From IMG/VR virus record IMGVR_UViG_2871871566_000003, positions 11,671 through 75,670 of that record: DNA of 64,000 nucleotides. One strand, 5' to 3'. Positions within the stretch are counted from its first letter, which is position 1. Every line of letters begins with the position of its first letter. A model generated the notes under the pieces. That model saw only the letters and a program-made list of their open reading frames with translations. It was not told where the DNA came from and made no database searches. The position numbers and the translations under genes are program-made. This stretch comes from a virus (Duplodnaviria; Caudoviricetes). Shown here one piece after another: positions 17,265 through 62,894 of this stretch.

Positions 17265-18959
17265 ATGTATAAAATGAAGAAAATTTCAAATTATTTTTCT
17301 AATCGTCAGTTCATCTTTAAGATGATTCTGATGCTTCTTGCAGTTGCTACAGGCGGTGGCGCAATGGCTGTTGGTGATGATGTTGAACCTGATTTGAACG
17401 AGCCGGGTTCTAAGCCAGCAACAACCGAAGAGACAGCTGCCAATGAGCAGGTAGATAAGGATAAGAACGACATGCTTGCCCCTGGTGGTAAAGCTGCTGG
17501 TCAGTCTTTGACTGGTACGCAGGCTTCTGCTACACAGATGGACCGAGGCGGTCTTGAAGAGGAAGACTGGGACACGGGTGAGACCAAGTTCCGCCCATAT
17601 CATACACCTCTCCTTTCTATCGTCAAGAAGTTTACCACAACTGTTCCTTGTACTGGCTACAAGAAGAAACACGCACGCTATGGTGGTGAGACCTTGGACG
17701 GTGAGGTTACACAGCCTATTGCTACTGGTGCTTCCATCAAGCTTACCAAGACAAACTTCTCAGGCTCTTTGAAGCCATTCTACGAGGGTTCTACTGCTAT
17801 CGTTCCTACCGTAGCTGGTTACAAGCGTGGCTCTACTACAGTTCGTGAAGGTCGTTTGGTTCTCTTTGTTACCAGCGCCAATAAGTCAGGTACTGAGGTT
17901 ACCTTGCAGGCTATCAATGGTAAGGCTAATGAGGAGGGTGCCGATTGCGAGTTCTTGGAAAACATGACTTGCCCGAACATTCCTGTTGGTACAGTTATTT
18001 TGGCAGCTTCTACAGCTCTCTCTGAGTCTCAGATGAAGGTTCCTGCTGAGAACTACCAGCCACGTTCTGCTGATGTTTATCTCCAGAAGCGAGCATTCTC
18101 TATCGTCTTCACCGAGGACTTCGAGACCATGAAGAAGAAAATTCCTCATACAGTGAAGGATATGAAGGAAGATGCACTCAACAAGTACAAGATGCGTGCT
18201 GAGCGTTCTTATTGGATGGGTACCAAGGCTCGCATTCACTCTACTACCAATGACGGTGCTGATGAGTACACCTACTTCGCAGAGGGTATCTTGAATCAGC
18301 TGACTAACCAGTATGGTATCGGTGAGGTTTACAAGTACGAGGATTTGACTGCTATCAGTATGTTGATGTTCACAGACTTCTCTGAGTCTGACCACATCTA
18401 TATGTTCTGTGGCAAGAACGCAATCAAGCGCCTGATGAACATTGAGATTCCAAAGGGTCGCACAGAGGTTCTTTCTACTCACAAGGAAATCGACATTACT
18501 TTCTCTCGCTACGTTGACAACTATGGTACTATTGATTTCGTTTGGGATCAGACTCTTGACATGATGCACATGGAAGACTGCATGGTTGGTATGGACTTGA
18601 AGGGTGCTCGTCACTACGTGAAGGAGAAGGGTAAGGATAAGACCAATGACATGAGCAAGGATGGCTACGATCCACGTGAGGCTAAGCGATACATGCACAT
18701 TGAGGCAGATTGTATTGCTCTTCGTGGCTACAACTCTATCTTGGTTGGTCCAGAGGCATTCATCACTAACCTTGGTGTTACTGGCATCGTGAACAGCATC
18801 ATATCTCTGAAGACTCTCCCTGATACTGCTGCTAAGGGCATGAAGGTGGCTTTAACAGAGGATTACACCAAGGATGAGACAACCTACGAGAAGGGTAAGG
18901 TTTATGAGTACGATGGTACTAAGTGGAACTTGTATGCCGGCATGGACGTTGCTGCATAA
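17265..18959 (+). CDS. Major capsid protein
   Basis: 564 aa, strongly biased codon usage, follows the scaffold; N-terminal hydrophobic stretch. Confidence 0.8.
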   Translation: MYKMKKISNYFSNRQFIFKMILMLLAVATGGGAMAVGDDVEPDLNEPGSKPATTEETAANEQVDKDKNDMLAPGGKAAGQSLTGTQASATQMDRGGLEEEDWDTGETKFRPYHTPLLSIVKKFTTTVPCTGYKKKHARYGGETLDGEVTQPIATGASIKLTKTNFSGSLKPFYEGSTAIVPTVAGYKRGSTTVREGRLVLFVTSANKSGTEVTLQAINGKANEEGADCEFLENMTCPNIPVGTVILAASTALSESQMKVPAENYQPRSADVYLQKRAFSIVFTEDFETMKKKIPHTVKDMKEDALNKYKMRAERSYWMGTKARIHSTTNDGADEYTYFAEGILNQLTNQYGIGEVYKYEDLTAISMLMFTDFSESDHIYMFCGKNAIKRLMNIEIPKGRTEVLSTHKEIDITFSRYVDNYGTIDFVWDQTLDMMHMEDCMVGMDLKGARHYVKEKGKDKTNDMSKDGYDPREAKRYMHIEADCIALRGYNSILVGPEAFITNLGVTGIVNSIISLKTLPDTAAKGMKVALTEDYTKDETTYEKGKVYEYDGTKWNLYAGMDVAA

Positions 18960-52086: not shown

Positions 52087-52132
52087 GGGGAGATAAGGGG
52101 GCAGCGCCCCCACGGGCGCAAGCGCCCTCCCC
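52087..52132. repeat. GC-rich three-way-junction repeat, copy 1
   Basis: GGGGAGATAAGGGGGCAGCGCCCCCACGGGCGCAAGCGCCCTCCCC. Confidence 0.8.
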
Positions 52133-52154: not shown

Positions 52155-52469
52155 TCACCAACAGAAGTTGCAAGGCTTGTAACCTTCTTGCTCGGCTTGA
52201 TACAGGTACATTTCATCTGTATACAGGTCGTGCACACCTTTGCAGTTTTGGTCAAGATGATAGTACTTTGTACTGCTATCTGCCCAAACAATTGTTTCTT
52301 GATAGTCTTTTTCTTCTCTTGCGTCTAATTCTTCTTGCTTGCGCTCAAAATCTTCGTTCACGCTATGGAAGAACGTGCTTTTGAAGGAGTACACCAATAC
52401 AACTGCAACAAAGCAGAATCCAAGCACACCGCCTAAGAATGTGCCAACCTTACTTAAGAACTTTTTCAT
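52155..52469 (-). CDS. Membrane-anchored protein with H-x4-C...CxxC motif, co-transcribed with the repressor
   Basis: N-terminal TM; YYHLDQNC...GYKPCNFC; 4-bp overlap with the repressor. Confidence 0.75.
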   Translation of the reverse strand: MKKFLSKVGTFLGGVLGFCFVAVVLVYSFKSTFFHSVNEDFERKQEELDAREEKDYQETIVWADSSTKYYHLDQNCKGVHDLYTDEMYLYQAEQEGYKPCNFCW

Positions 52470-52762
52470 TTCGCTATAATCTTTAATTCGTCAACTTGTC
52501 TAAAGAACTCCTCCAATGTATCGGCAGTATAATGGATGCCCTTGTAGCGTACATAGCTAGCAAAGTCCTCGTTAGGTCTCTTTACTTCATCCTCGAAGAA
52601 CTCACTAACGTTCGCACCTATCACGTCAGCAACTTGACGCATAGTCTTATACGTTGGGTTGCCATTAATCATATTATTTAGGTTTACCCTATTAATACCG
52701 AGGGCGTCAGACACTTGCTTTTGTGTAAAGCCCTTACGTTTTATTATCTTAGCTATATCCAT
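52466..52762 (-). CDS. XRE-family HTH repressor
   Basis: FTQKQVSDALGINRVNLNNMINGNPTYKTMRQVADVIG. Confidence 0.85.
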   Translation of the reverse strand: MDIAKIIKRKGFTQKQVSDALGINRVNLNNMINGNPTYKTMRQVADVIGANVSEFFEDEVKRPNEDFASYVRYKGIHYTADTLEEFFRQVDELKIIAK

Positions 52763-52773
52763 AAATATCCAAT

Positions 52774-52964
52774 GTAATGTTATAATATTGGCTGCAAAGT
52801 TACATAAATATTTTGATACTACCAAATTTTTGAAGAAAAGTAACATTAAAGCACTAATAAACAGATTTTAGTGTAACGTTATGTTAATTGTGTTAAAAAA
52901 TAGGCTTGAAGTGTTAAAACACTACCTAAAAATTTGGTAGTGTAACAATAAAGCATTACATTTG
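52774..52964. promoter_or_regulatory. Divergent promoter switch with candidate operators
   Basis: Leftward TTTG/TAACTTTG and rightward TTTG (52933)/TACATTTG (52957-52964); TAACRTTA-like palindromes at about 52775, 52841, 52874 and 52943. Confidence 0.75.
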
Positions 52965-52969
52965 CACTC

Positions 52970-53310
52970 GAAATCAAGTTAGTTTGATTTCAAGAGGAAC
53001 GATGGCACGTTTAGCACTTCACGTTTAACTACCTCTATAAAAGTACAGATTAGTCTGGAAAGGCAGCAGAATAAACTGCTATAACAAAGCGTAGCGAACA
53101 ACGTCAGTTTCGTTTAGCATTTTTGGTCGTTAAAAAGGCAAGACAAAGAAGTCTCAAACACTCATCACGGAAGATGTAAAAACGCTAGTCGTGTTAGACT
53201 AGAGAAACATCGAAACACGTCAACCCACGGACGTTAAACGAAGGGAGTTAGGCTGCATGAGACTTGCAGACGTTGGGCGCAAACGTACACCTGCACTTTA
53301 TTGTAGAACA
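52970..53310 (+). ncRNA. Candidate structured non-coding RNA / early leader
   Basis: No ORF; starts right after the -7 box; ten or more short hairpins and a long-range helix 53109-53118/53233-53242. Confidence 0.55.
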
Positions 53311-53327
53311 TTTTAACAACAACGACA

Positions 53328-53504
53328 ATGGAACAAACAAAGATGTGTTTATTAGAATTGACAAAGGCTGATGCTATTGTATTAGCCAACATAATTAGAA
53401 GAACTGCAAACGAGAATCCATTTCATTGGAAGGATAGCAGCGTTGAGAAGACAAGAGACCTGTACGATAACGTACTCACTCAGTTGTACGACTATAAATA
53501 TTAA
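53328..53504 (+). CDS. 58-aa hypothetical early protein (MEQTKMCLLE...)
   Basis: Hand-translated; coupled to the next gene. Confidence 0.6.
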   Translation: MEQTKMCLLELTKADAIVLANIIRRTANENPFHWKDSSVEKTRDLYDNVLTQLYDYKY

Positions 53505-53916: not shown

Positions 53917-53966
53917 GTGGGGAGATAAGGGGGCAGCGCCCCCACGGGGCGTACGCCCCTCCCCAC
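53917..53966. repeat. GC-rich three-way-junction repeat, copy 2
   Basis: GTGGGGAGATAAGGGGGCAGCGCCCCCACGGGGCGTACGCCCCTCCCCAC. Confidence 0.8.
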
Positions 53967-62270: not shown

Positions 62271-62562
62271 AAATTGGGGAAAGAAAAAACCGACCCTCTT
62301 CTAACGGCTTAATCAATCCCCTATATTGTAATACCTATTGAAAGTATTGAAGTTTCACAAATGTTGTATCAACAAGATAGAGGGCGAAAATCTGTATTGA
62401 CGAGTGCAAAAGTAAGAAAAGTATTTGAAACCGCCAAATTTCAACTTTTGCAAAATATAGTTAAAAAGTAATTAAAAATTTGTGTTATAAAAATGTTATC
62501 ACTATCTTTGCACCTGAAAGATAAGTGGCTGATATAGACAGATTTGTGAGAAATTGGTTGTG

Positions 62563-62578
62563 ACCCCAACGGAATCAC
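62563..62578 (+). repeat. Candidate att core (3' end of a tRNA, probably tRNA-Arg)
   Basis: ACCCCAACGGAATCAC matches my recollection of the Bacteroidetes tRNA-Arg(UCU) 3' end; lies at the phage/host transition; not checked by search. Confidence 0.5.
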
Positions 62579-62837
62579 TATAATAAGCAAAATGAAACTT
62601 ATTTGTACAAAATAGCGTGAGAGAACAATAGTAGTAAGTTGCTTATTCATAGGTACTTATCTCTGTTGTTCTTTTTGTTTTTAAATATATTTTATCACTT
62701 ATTCCTCTTTTATGTACTCTTTTTGTAAATAGCTGTTAATCAATATGTTATGAATTTGACGTATTGAGAAATCATCCATGTGTATTACAAATGTGTTATC
62801 AAAAAGCGCTAATGTGTTATCAGAATAGAGAAGTTAA

Positions 62838-62875
62838 AATCCTTAATGACCTTAATGACCGTGACCTTAATGACC
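62838..62875. repeat. Short imperfect repeat CCTTAATGAC x3
   Basis: Seen directly in the sequence, downstream of the RNase H-like stop. Confidence 0.7.
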
Positions 62876-62894
62876 GGAAAACGCCCCTAAACAT

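Follow-up and report, generated by a model that had tools for sequence, protein, structure and literature searches.

The DNA analysed here, hereafter the window, is a stretch of 64,000 nt that corresponds to bases 11671-75670 of the 75,670-bp IMG/VR record IMGVR_UViG_2871871566_000003. A structured leader of ~330 nt occupies positions 52966-53296 (+ strand) and begins ~5 nt past a Bacteroidota-type promoter box. We hold with high confidence that this leader exists as a real, conserved, plus-strand structured RNA and that its helices are as described below. The RNA family is new and uncatalogued, and is confined to one group of abundant gut phages. As to its function, we tentatively propose, with a probability of about 0.4, that the leader acts in cis to control elongation of the early transcript past a GC-rich barrier.

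Relatives of the locus were gathered via the neighbouring repressor gene (80 loci) and via a downstream open reading frame (ORF) of 132 aa (33 loci), in both cases independently of the RNA. The 66 distinct homologues obtained in this manner make up alignment A1. Alignment A2 covers the 3' domain only and contains 52 sequences, including one distant relative. For a larger set of 152 distinct full-length sequences, loci were added by scanning viral, genome and metagenome collections for the conserved block; all that a shorter pattern scan added were L211 and L212, chance matches in unrelated sequence. The structure model, built by hand, comprises 47 pairs in 9 helices.

In A1, 98.7% of the model cells are paired, compared with 92.8% in shuffles and 27-41% when partners are slid by 1-3 columns. 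Both sides have changed in 15 of the 47 pairs (207 cells). The original prediction, which had been made from the sequence of the window, had set beforehand a lack of covariation in homologues as part of its refuting test; the structure does covary, with a score of 0.201 versus 0.097 for shuffles (0 of 500 reach 0.201) and at most 0.051 for slid partners. The 52 sequences of A2 are 98.2% paired, with compensatory changes in 11 of 28 pairs, and each helix is 94-100% paired across the 152 sequences. Moreover, all 80 metagenome loci (80/80) match covariance model R1. These counts must be read with the caveat that alleles recur in many mosaic combinations, and independent events are far fewer than cells; despite this, one helix alone, stem B, shows four alleles that are all perfectly paired.

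The strand on which selection operates can be told from the single-sided changes. Those that yield G:U far exceed those that yield A:C: 114 versus 11 in A1 (52 versus 11 if one invariant G:U pair is left out) and 314 versus 52 in the 152-sequence set. Hence, the selected structure is an RNA of the + strand, and neither a DNA palindrome nor an RNA of the − strand. Folding energy is by itself weak and nearly equal on both strands (z = −2.29 for + and −2.32 for −), so it is covariation that carries the evidence for structure. A scan of the 64-kb window with Rfam 15 gave 0 matches at gathering scores, in agreement with the initial impression that the RNA belongs to no recognised family. At E ≤ 10, the scan returned only a spurious yeast snoRNA match upstream of the element and a U7 match.

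The promoter (52931-52964, + strand) is made of TTTG at 52931-52934 and a −7 box, TACATTTG, at 52957-52964. Its T-A-n-n-T-T-T-G motif is invariant in 66 of 66 A1 homologues, and both n positions and the upstream sequence differ by repressor type. Judging from the known Bacteroides promoter consensus, the transcript would start at ~52968-52972. By blastn, the similarity of relatives to the window sets in at ~52925-52961, either around the promoter box or at most ~35 nt ahead of it, and continues as far as the first start codon; this is so even where the repressor is only 37-48% identical. At its 3' side, the leader is followed by an AU-rich unstructured spacer and the first early start codon (53297-53330, + strand; ATG at 53328), and the distance from the tail of the leader to the start codon is ~28-41 nt regardless of the gene family that follows. 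The location given in the original prediction is upheld, with hairpins next to TACATTTG, and the first ORF starts at 53328. Its view of a structured RNA is upheld too: the RNA is on the + strand and lies right after a conserved promoter of host type and opposite a helix-turn-helix (HTH) regulator gene.

The region was also said to be ORF-free, and conserved ORFs are indeed lacking. In each of 88 homologues, the longest ORF with both ATG and stop, all frames considered, has 8-68 aa (median, 24), and indels of 1, 2 and 4 nt, which are not multiples of three, are found in the leader. Other alleles interrupt the small ATG frames that start at 53003 and 53258 in the window. A coding explanation can therefore be ruled out.

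The leader opens with a 5'-terminal hairpin, P1 (52970-52991), of sequence GAAAUCAAG/UUUGAUUUC with a UUAG loop. Its 9 pairs are 98.5% paired and vary by G:U wobbles only (GU in place of GC in 10 sequences, and UG in place of UA in 17), changes that would be mismatches on the other strand or disrupt a DNA palindrome. P1 is constant across repressor types, an observation which argues that it is not the immunity operator. Domain P2 (52993-53036) has an outer stem AGAGG/CCUCU (52993-52997/53032-53036) and a variable interior with three alleles, which holds a conserved AUGGCAC[A/G]UUUAG. Two pairs of P2 are compensatory: C:G versus A:U in 38 versus 27 sequences, and G:C versus U:A in 37 versus 28.

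A variable cassette follows (53040-53138), which holds a hairpin AGCAG/CUGCU in the window (53065-53069/53076-53080). Cassettes fall into three unrelated classes, found in 42, 21 and 3 of the 66 sequences; the window carries the rare one (3/66). The first hairpin of the cassette is paired in all classes, with differing stems. In both common cassettes, the 3' part can form a candidate H-type pseudoknot, GAGU-UA-GUUGC-N-ACUC-UCAAA-GCAAC (e.g., L002:2627-2661, − strand), a segment of classical pseudoknot proportions that is not in the window's cassette. On alignment A3, stem 1 of this putative pseudoknot is 99% paired with one compensatory change and stem 2 is 75% paired; variants of stem 2 (GUG..CAC, GCG..CGC and UGUC..GACA) pair only if re-registered by hand. 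Two small hairpins come next. H5 (53141-53154), AGAC-AAAGAA-GUCU, shows A:U to G:C changes in 10 sequences and A:U to C:G in 4, and is 97.3% paired among the 152 sequences, while H6 (53163-53176), CAUC-ACGGAA-GAUG, is compensatory in 3 of 4 pairs and 99.2% paired in the same set.

The stems that had been listed at the outset did not all fare alike. Compensatory or wobble changes were found in GAAATCAA/TTGATTTC, AGAGG/CCTCT, GCAG/CTGC, AGAC/GTCT, CATC/GATG, CTAGTC/GACTAG, CGTC/GACG and CTGCA/TGCAG. In contrast, CAGA-TTAG-TCTG (53046-53057) and TGCA/TGTA occur only with the window's rare cassette type or allele (3-4 of 66) and cannot be considered features of the family. A long-range 10-bp helix (53109-53118/53233-53242), thought to close a multibranch domain, is likewise peculiar to the window's cassette and is not conserved.

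The 3' core of ~125 nt runs from H7 through the tail. H7 (53185-53202), CUAGUC-GUGUUA-GACUAG, has compensatory pair types at 6 of 6 pairs in the 152 sequences. H8 (53210-53241) is formed by ACGUC-AACCCACG-GACGU (53217-53234) with a 3-bp extension, UCG/CGA (53210-53212/53239-53241); its closing pair is C:G versus U:A in 25 versus 27 of 52 sequences, and the extension shows a G:C to G:U change, specific to the + strand, in 22 sequences. Stems A and B, discussed below, lie between H8 and H9. Finally, H9 (ACGUU-GGGCGCA-AACGU, 53270-53286) and the tail ACACCUGCAC (53287-53296) form the most conserved block of the leader (53270-53296): in A1, which was gathered independently of this block, it is invariant save for one loop base (C/A). 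The H9 stem ACGTT/AACGT never varies and so offers no covariation signal.

Of all 100-nt intervals within 5 kb around the leader, 53200-53299 is the most conserved, in a comparison set that was partly selected on this block, and the core is far more conserved than the adjacent genes. It is retained in two distant relatives: L119, from a genome whose portal homologue is 36% identical, and L266, from a metagenome contig. Both keep H7, H8, the A/B region, and H9 with its tail. The H7 stem is wholly different in L119 and L266, yet paired, and a 30-nt block with H9 and the tail is at most one base off the window (the variable loop base is A in L119, and the window's C in L266). In these relatives, the core lies inside non-coding gaps of ~350-375 nt between early ORFs of the same strand.

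The 5' parts of these gaps have features of their own. In the L119 homologue (L214:1266-1316, − strand), a tRNA-like minihelix is found. Its parts are, in order, an acceptor-like stem of 7 bp (UUCCGUG/CACGGAA), a short hairpin, a second stem of 5 bp capped by a UUCGAUU T-loop, and CCA. ARAGORN makes no call there, and cmscan gives just a weak tmRNA T-arm match (E = 0.13). The minihelix may be an RNase P processing signal. In L266 (2540-2650), two direct repeats of ~40 nt are present, each with a small hairpin of GGAG/CUCC type followed by an A run. The repeat unit is TTATTCGG[G/A][A/T]GCCTCCAC[T/C]TAAAAAAA(A)GAC[A/G]TGCGAAGA, and the first copy is one A longer.

Extreme conservation of the H9 block admits an explanation at the level of DNA. 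Read on the − strand (53287-53280), the block contains TACGTTTG, a perfect Bacteroidota −7 box and thus a possible antisense promoter; ~75 nt farther on the same strand, the H7 hairpin is followed by UUUUU (53202-53178), a terminator-like arrangement. Box and hairpin could delimit a small antisense RNA ending at H7 + U5, and the block might be kept for this promoter; alternatively, the region might be a replication origin or RNA primer. A repressor without an integrase would permit an episomal lifestyle, and RNA-primed prophage origins are known in mycobacteriophages (PMC7157519). We consider these readings very improbable. The excess of G:U over A:C places the selected structure on the + strand, and an 8-nt box is too short to account for near-invariance over 30 bases. 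A −33 TTTG at the proper distance is lacking, and by our estimate one such box per 330 nt would arise by chance in ~18% of cases. Furthermore, L119 and L266 have no divergent repressor upstream that an antisense transcript might serve, and matches to replication genes are weak and ~8 kb away from the leader.

Within the 3' core, the region 53245-53269 has a paradoxical side, as it contains two overlapping stems that are both supported by covariation. Stem A, (G)AGUU/GACU(U), pairs 53246-53249 with 53261-53264, and stem B, CUGCA/UGCAG, pairs 53253-53257 with 53265-53269. Stem A is compensatory at 2 pairs in A1 and at 3 pairs in A2. Stem B has 3 compensatory pairs and is 100% paired; its four alleles are CUGCA/UGCAG, UCACA/UGUGA, CUACA/UGUAG and UCGCA/UGCGG, the two common ones being found in 31 versus 21 of 52 sequences, the third in L119 and the fourth in L266. 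The 3' strands of A and B abut, with zero nucleotides between them. From known pseudoknot geometry, coexistence of A and B as a classical H-type pseudoknot is sterically implausible with no linker there. Hence, we treat A and B as alternative conformers that cannot both fully form, a strained pseudoknot being the other option.

Two states can thus be envisaged. In one, B forms next to H9; in the other, A forms, and the invariant tail is paired with the 3' strand of B, which lengthens H9. Energies computed for these states, 'B + H9' and 'A + extended H9', differ by no more than ~1-2 kcal/mol in both common alleles: in the CUGCA allele, −10.0 versus −9.3 to −11.1 kcal/mol; in the UCACA allele, with the GUG:CAC extension, −8.0 versus −7.6 to −10.0 kcal/mol. 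These observations suggest that the A/B region is a conformational switch.

Such a switch might be self-contained. In an attenuator or riboswitch-like device, a ligand, a protein or temperature would select one of the two mutually exclusive states, and early transcription or translation would start or stop inside the leader itself. With A formed, the invariant tail and the 3' strand of B would lengthen H9, giving a terminator-like hairpin ahead of a U-rich run. The covariation of both stems, the lack of a linker and the near-isoenergetic states speak for this possibility, and so do the ability of the B 3' strand to pair with the tail CUGCA in all four alleles (by wobbles in some), the presence of UUU after the tail in ≥90% of close homologues, and the fixed spacing to the start codon. 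Nevertheless, the tail helix is weak (−1.5 to −3.9 kcal/mol) in the UCACA/UGUGA allele, which is that of 39 of 66 sequences in A1; in the same allele, the alternative hairpin stops 6 nt short of the U run. No U tract follows the tail in L119 or L266, and compatibility by wobbles is expected from transitions alone. An intrinsic terminator made of the B 3' strand and the tail is therefore a weakened candidate, unstable as it is in 39/66 sequences and devoid of a U tract in the distant relatives. Conservation, in addition, peaks at the 3' end and not in a 5' aptamer-like core, and Rfam gives no riboswitch match. Among the hallmarks of riboswitches and attenuators, mutually exclusive helices are found in the leader; a conserved terminator hairpin with its U tract is not. 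Altogether, we view a self-contained switch as rather unlikely.

The leader can also be considered together with what lies downstream. After the second ORF, a GC-rich element predicted to fold as a three-way junction (53919-53964, + strand) is a candidate transcription barrier. Of the 84 leader-bearing loci with adequate flank, 77 have such an element 127-1006 nt past the leader, and a rightward copy is present in only 3 of 15 related loci that lack the long leader. Because of this co-occurrence, the idea of an antiterminator leader gains indirect support. The window has a twin of the element at 52087-52132, and the two copies bracket the repressor, the leader and the first ORFs. Both have the form GGGGA..GGGGGC-AGC-GCCCCC..second hairpin..UCCCC, with covariation in the second hairpin from copy to copy and from phage to phage. 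The rightward copy goes with the long leader, while the leftward one is present irrespective of leader type.

The relatives themselves provide natural variation at this site. Among the 80 repressor-found loci, 64 have the long leader, 6 have a different leader of ~190 nt (L013, L014, L016, L017, L020 and L047, unrelated to the long one), 7 have a leader of ~55 nt (L021, L022, L034, L052-L054 and L064), 2 have another type, and 1 locus is truncated. The ~190-nt and ~55-nt loci share the TAnnTTTGCA promoter and a P1-like first hairpin. Leaders behave as exchangeable modules.

The hypothesis that we tentatively favour is an RNA-based read-through device of antitermination type. Host RNA polymerase would initiate at the TAnnTTTG promoter, and P1, P2, the exchangeable cassette, H5-H9 and the invariant tail would make up the initial ~330 nt of the RNA. 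The folded 3' core would then act in cis, on the transcribing complex or on the nascent transcript, and decide the passage of early transcription beyond the GC-rich three-way-junction barrier, which is reached after the first one to three small ORFs. Read-through would carry the polymerase into ~15 delayed small genes. In this scheme, the A/B alternative would serve as the on/off element, and the near-invariant H9 loop and tail would be the surface recognised by a conserved host partner, e.g., RNA polymerase.

Several considerations weigh against control of elongation. A processive antiterminator has no need of an A/B switch. The GC-rich elements have no U tract on either strand and are not canonical terminators, and the element is missing from ~7 leader-bearing loci and from both distant relatives. 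The association of leader and barrier may reflect inheritance of one module, with few independent events. Zero covariation is detected between the H9 loop and the GC-rich element; a pairing of the loop sequence GGGCGC with a downstream GCGCCC was entertained and discarded, as the C/A loop polymorphism has no matching change there. Finally, the same promoter is followed by ~55-nt or ~190-nt leaders in relatives, which indicates that the long leader is dispensable for the phage type.

The short leaders bear also on a humbler role, namely that of an element for stability or translation of the mRNA. The 5' hairpin and the dense structure would shield the leader from nucleases and from Rho, and the 3' core would be a ribosome standby site, an enhancer or an operator for the first cistron in a host without Shine-Dalgarno pairing. 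Retention of P1 even in relatives with other leaders would fit, as would the constant AU-rich spacer of ~30-40 nt between core and start codon. The leader lacks the C-over-G skew expected where Rho loads, a finding in line with shielding; it also led us to discard the leader as a Rho loading site. However, the ~55-nt-leader relatives indicate that promoter, P1-like hairpin and spacer suffice to head the operon, and stabilisation would need neither a near-invariant block of 30 nt nor a covarying two-state region nor cassettes that are exchanged. A role of this kind strikes us as distinctly unlikely.

A further possibility is that the RNA acts in trans. The leader or its 3' core would be cut from the mRNA and persist as a stable RNA that works very early in infection, e.g., a sponge or decoy to which a host RNA-binding protein, a nuclease or a defence sensor would bind. 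The leader is the first sequence transcribed, and near-invariance of the H9 loop and tail fits recognition by a conserved host macromolecule. A-rich linkers separate the hairpins and TTAG is enriched: its recurrence, pointed out in the original prediction, amounts to 6 copies versus 1.75 expected (P ~0.003), although only some of the copies are conserved. In L119, the tRNA-like minihelix could direct processing by RNase P. Arguments of the opposite sign can be made: no terminator or known processing signal is found at the 3' boundary of the leader in the window, and the tight start-codon spacing hints at a tie to the downstream gene. The invariant block has no near match in two Segatella genomes, hence no sign of host-RNA mimicry, and this version of the idea was set aside. 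Likewise, a blastn search of the window detected neither a second copy of the leader nor internal targets complementary to it. We give little credit to a trans-acting RNA on these grounds.

In its most ambitious version, the proposal would make the leader the first RNA-only read-through or elongation device for a Bacteroidota RNA polymerase, in which a ~125-nt core that toggles between A and B binds the host elongation complex directly and gates immediate-early transcription; equally, a free RNA might disarm a host factor before any phage protein is made. So specific a scenario is, in our opinion, rather improbable.

The leader is single-copy, as judged by blastn in the window and by covariance model R1 in the window and five genomes. 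Of 151 genomes of the genus Segatella that were searched, one has the leader, on a contig that looks like phage; the idea of a host chromosomal element was discarded on this account. In metagenomes, the leader is carried by human-gut contigs whose lengths cluster at 72-78 kb and whose coverage reaches 774×.

The record to which the window belongs has a completeness rating of 100% and is labelled as a provirus. It encodes a portal, a terminase-like protein and a giant protein of 5,801 aa. A 98-aa HTH_3 (Cro/CI-type) gene lies at 52466-52762 and is transcribed leftward; the leader points away from it, inside the 565-nt gap without conserved ORF that follows the gene. After the leader, ~15 small rightward ORFs of unknown function extend from 53328 to ~57.8 kb. 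These have no Pfam, PHROG or atlas assignment; the ESM Atlas returned no function for both ORFs directly after the leader, and the 132-aa product looks acidic by eye. No NusG paralogue of UpxY/LoaP type (PF02357) was found in the complete 75.7-kb record.

Neither was an integrase of tyrosine or serine type detected in the complete 75.7-kb record. Hence, 'lysogeny switch' is an assumption rather than a finding: of the 'switch promoter' announced in the original prediction, the promoter is conserved and the switch is unproven. The record thus combines a Cro/CI-type HTH gene and a provirus label with the lack of such a recombinase, and related contigs are 72-78 kb long with very high coverage. 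The lifestyle of the phage may be lytic or episomal instead of integrative.

Cultured phages are only remotely similar: the nearest are distant Bacteroides phages, with ~22% identity over a 564-aa protein of unknown function (window 17265-18959), and a blastn search of the leader region against 50,697 records of isolated phages gave no match. We infer a Segatella/Prevotella host because the promoter is of Bacteroidota type and 2 of the 5 genome-collection contigs are in Segatella bins; Bacillota bins of such contigs are probably due to mis-binning.

Elsewhere in the window, the intergenic gap 62271-62894 (~620 nt) holds on its + strand a promoter-like box, TATCTTTGCACCTGAAAG, at 62503, with flanking genes on the − strand. 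The box is very similar to TTATCTTTGCAC, the form that variants of the early promoter take in related phages.

Few large structured RNAs covary strongly and yet lack an assigned family, and those that do have repeatedly opened new biochemistry. Bacteroidota use different promoters and little Shine-Dalgarno pairing, and to our knowledge few RNA regulators have been described in them. The leader stands at the head of the early programme in a group of ~74-kb phages whose coverage in metagenomes of the human gut can be several-hundred-fold, and the presumed host, Segatella/Prevotella, is a major and poorly tractable gut genus. If the leader controls elongation or acts as an early decoy RNA, it would be a new regulatory tool for Bacteroidota and a candidate engineering part. 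The covarying, mutually exclusive helices make up a directly testable switch hypothesis, and natural variants (long, ~190-nt and ~55-nt leaders, with or without the GC barrier) provide a ready-made comparison set.

Known phage RNAs offer partial parallels. Lambda nut is a site of ~30 nt (boxA and one boxB hairpin) that requires the N protein. Like nut, the leader lies between an early promoter and the first candidate barrier, in an immunity region beside a Cro/CI-type HTH gene. Among the unassigned downstream ORFs, no N-like protein was recognisable, and a novel partner is possible. The leader also recalls the c4 RNA of P1/P7 and the CI RNA of P4 (Rfam C4), small structured RNAs which derive from early or immunity operon leaders and act on the transcript that they come from; c4 of P1 and CI of P4 are processed by RNase P, a feature brought to mind by the CCA-ending minihelix of L119. 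However, the window's leader has no Rfam C4 match, no tRNA-like element and no complementary target sites in the window. It is not a member of the c4 family, and probably not of the nut family either.

Screens of IMG/VR and of human microbiomes have yielded thousands of candidate structured RNAs with an average of 67 nt and no functional description (PMC10690425, PMC8040213). The leader resembles them in showing covariation in intergenic regions of uncultivated phages, and pieces of it may be among those candidates.

The put RNAs of HK022, proposed as a likeness in the original prediction, are ~70 nt long, have two stem-loops, are found in two copies per genome in enterobacterial lambdoid phages, and act in cis on RNA polymerase (β' zinc-binding domain) with no protein factors (PMC9378689). 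In lambda and HK022, transcription from PL/PR passes nut or put ahead of the first terminators, and putR is ~270 nt downstream of the PR start (PMC9378689). The leader is likewise a structured RNA, presumably acting in cis, right after an early phage promoter (or the first small gene) and upstream of a candidate barrier, with no dedicated protein partner evident; its position reproduces the order early promoter, RNA, terminators if the GC-rich element is accepted as candidate terminator, and the location of the L119 and L266 cores between same-strand early ORFs is reminiscent of putR. In contrast, the leader has one copy instead of two, ~330 nt, at least 9-10 helices, an apparent two-state region and a Bacteroidota host, and shows no sequence or model similarity to put. 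By size, helix number and copy number, the leader is not a member of the put family.

A large RNA is also found near the start of a very long operon in the Gram-positive conjugative plasmid pLS20, where conAn2 enables the polymerase to pass an internal terminator (PMC8191782). A large leader at the head of a long operon is common to both, the internal barrier being in our case a candidate. The conAn system differs in that it is bipartite, with the ConAn1 protein for processivity, in that it resides on Bacillota plasmids, and in having no homology to the leader; no ConAn1-like partner turned up among the neighbouring ORFs, which are unassigned in libraries that include no ConAn1 model. The layout of our locus is an early promoter, an RNA element, small ORFs, a structured barrier and further early genes. 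It is because of this parallel with lambda/HK022 and conAn2, together with the co-occurrence of leader and GC-rich element, that control of elongation is the function we favour.

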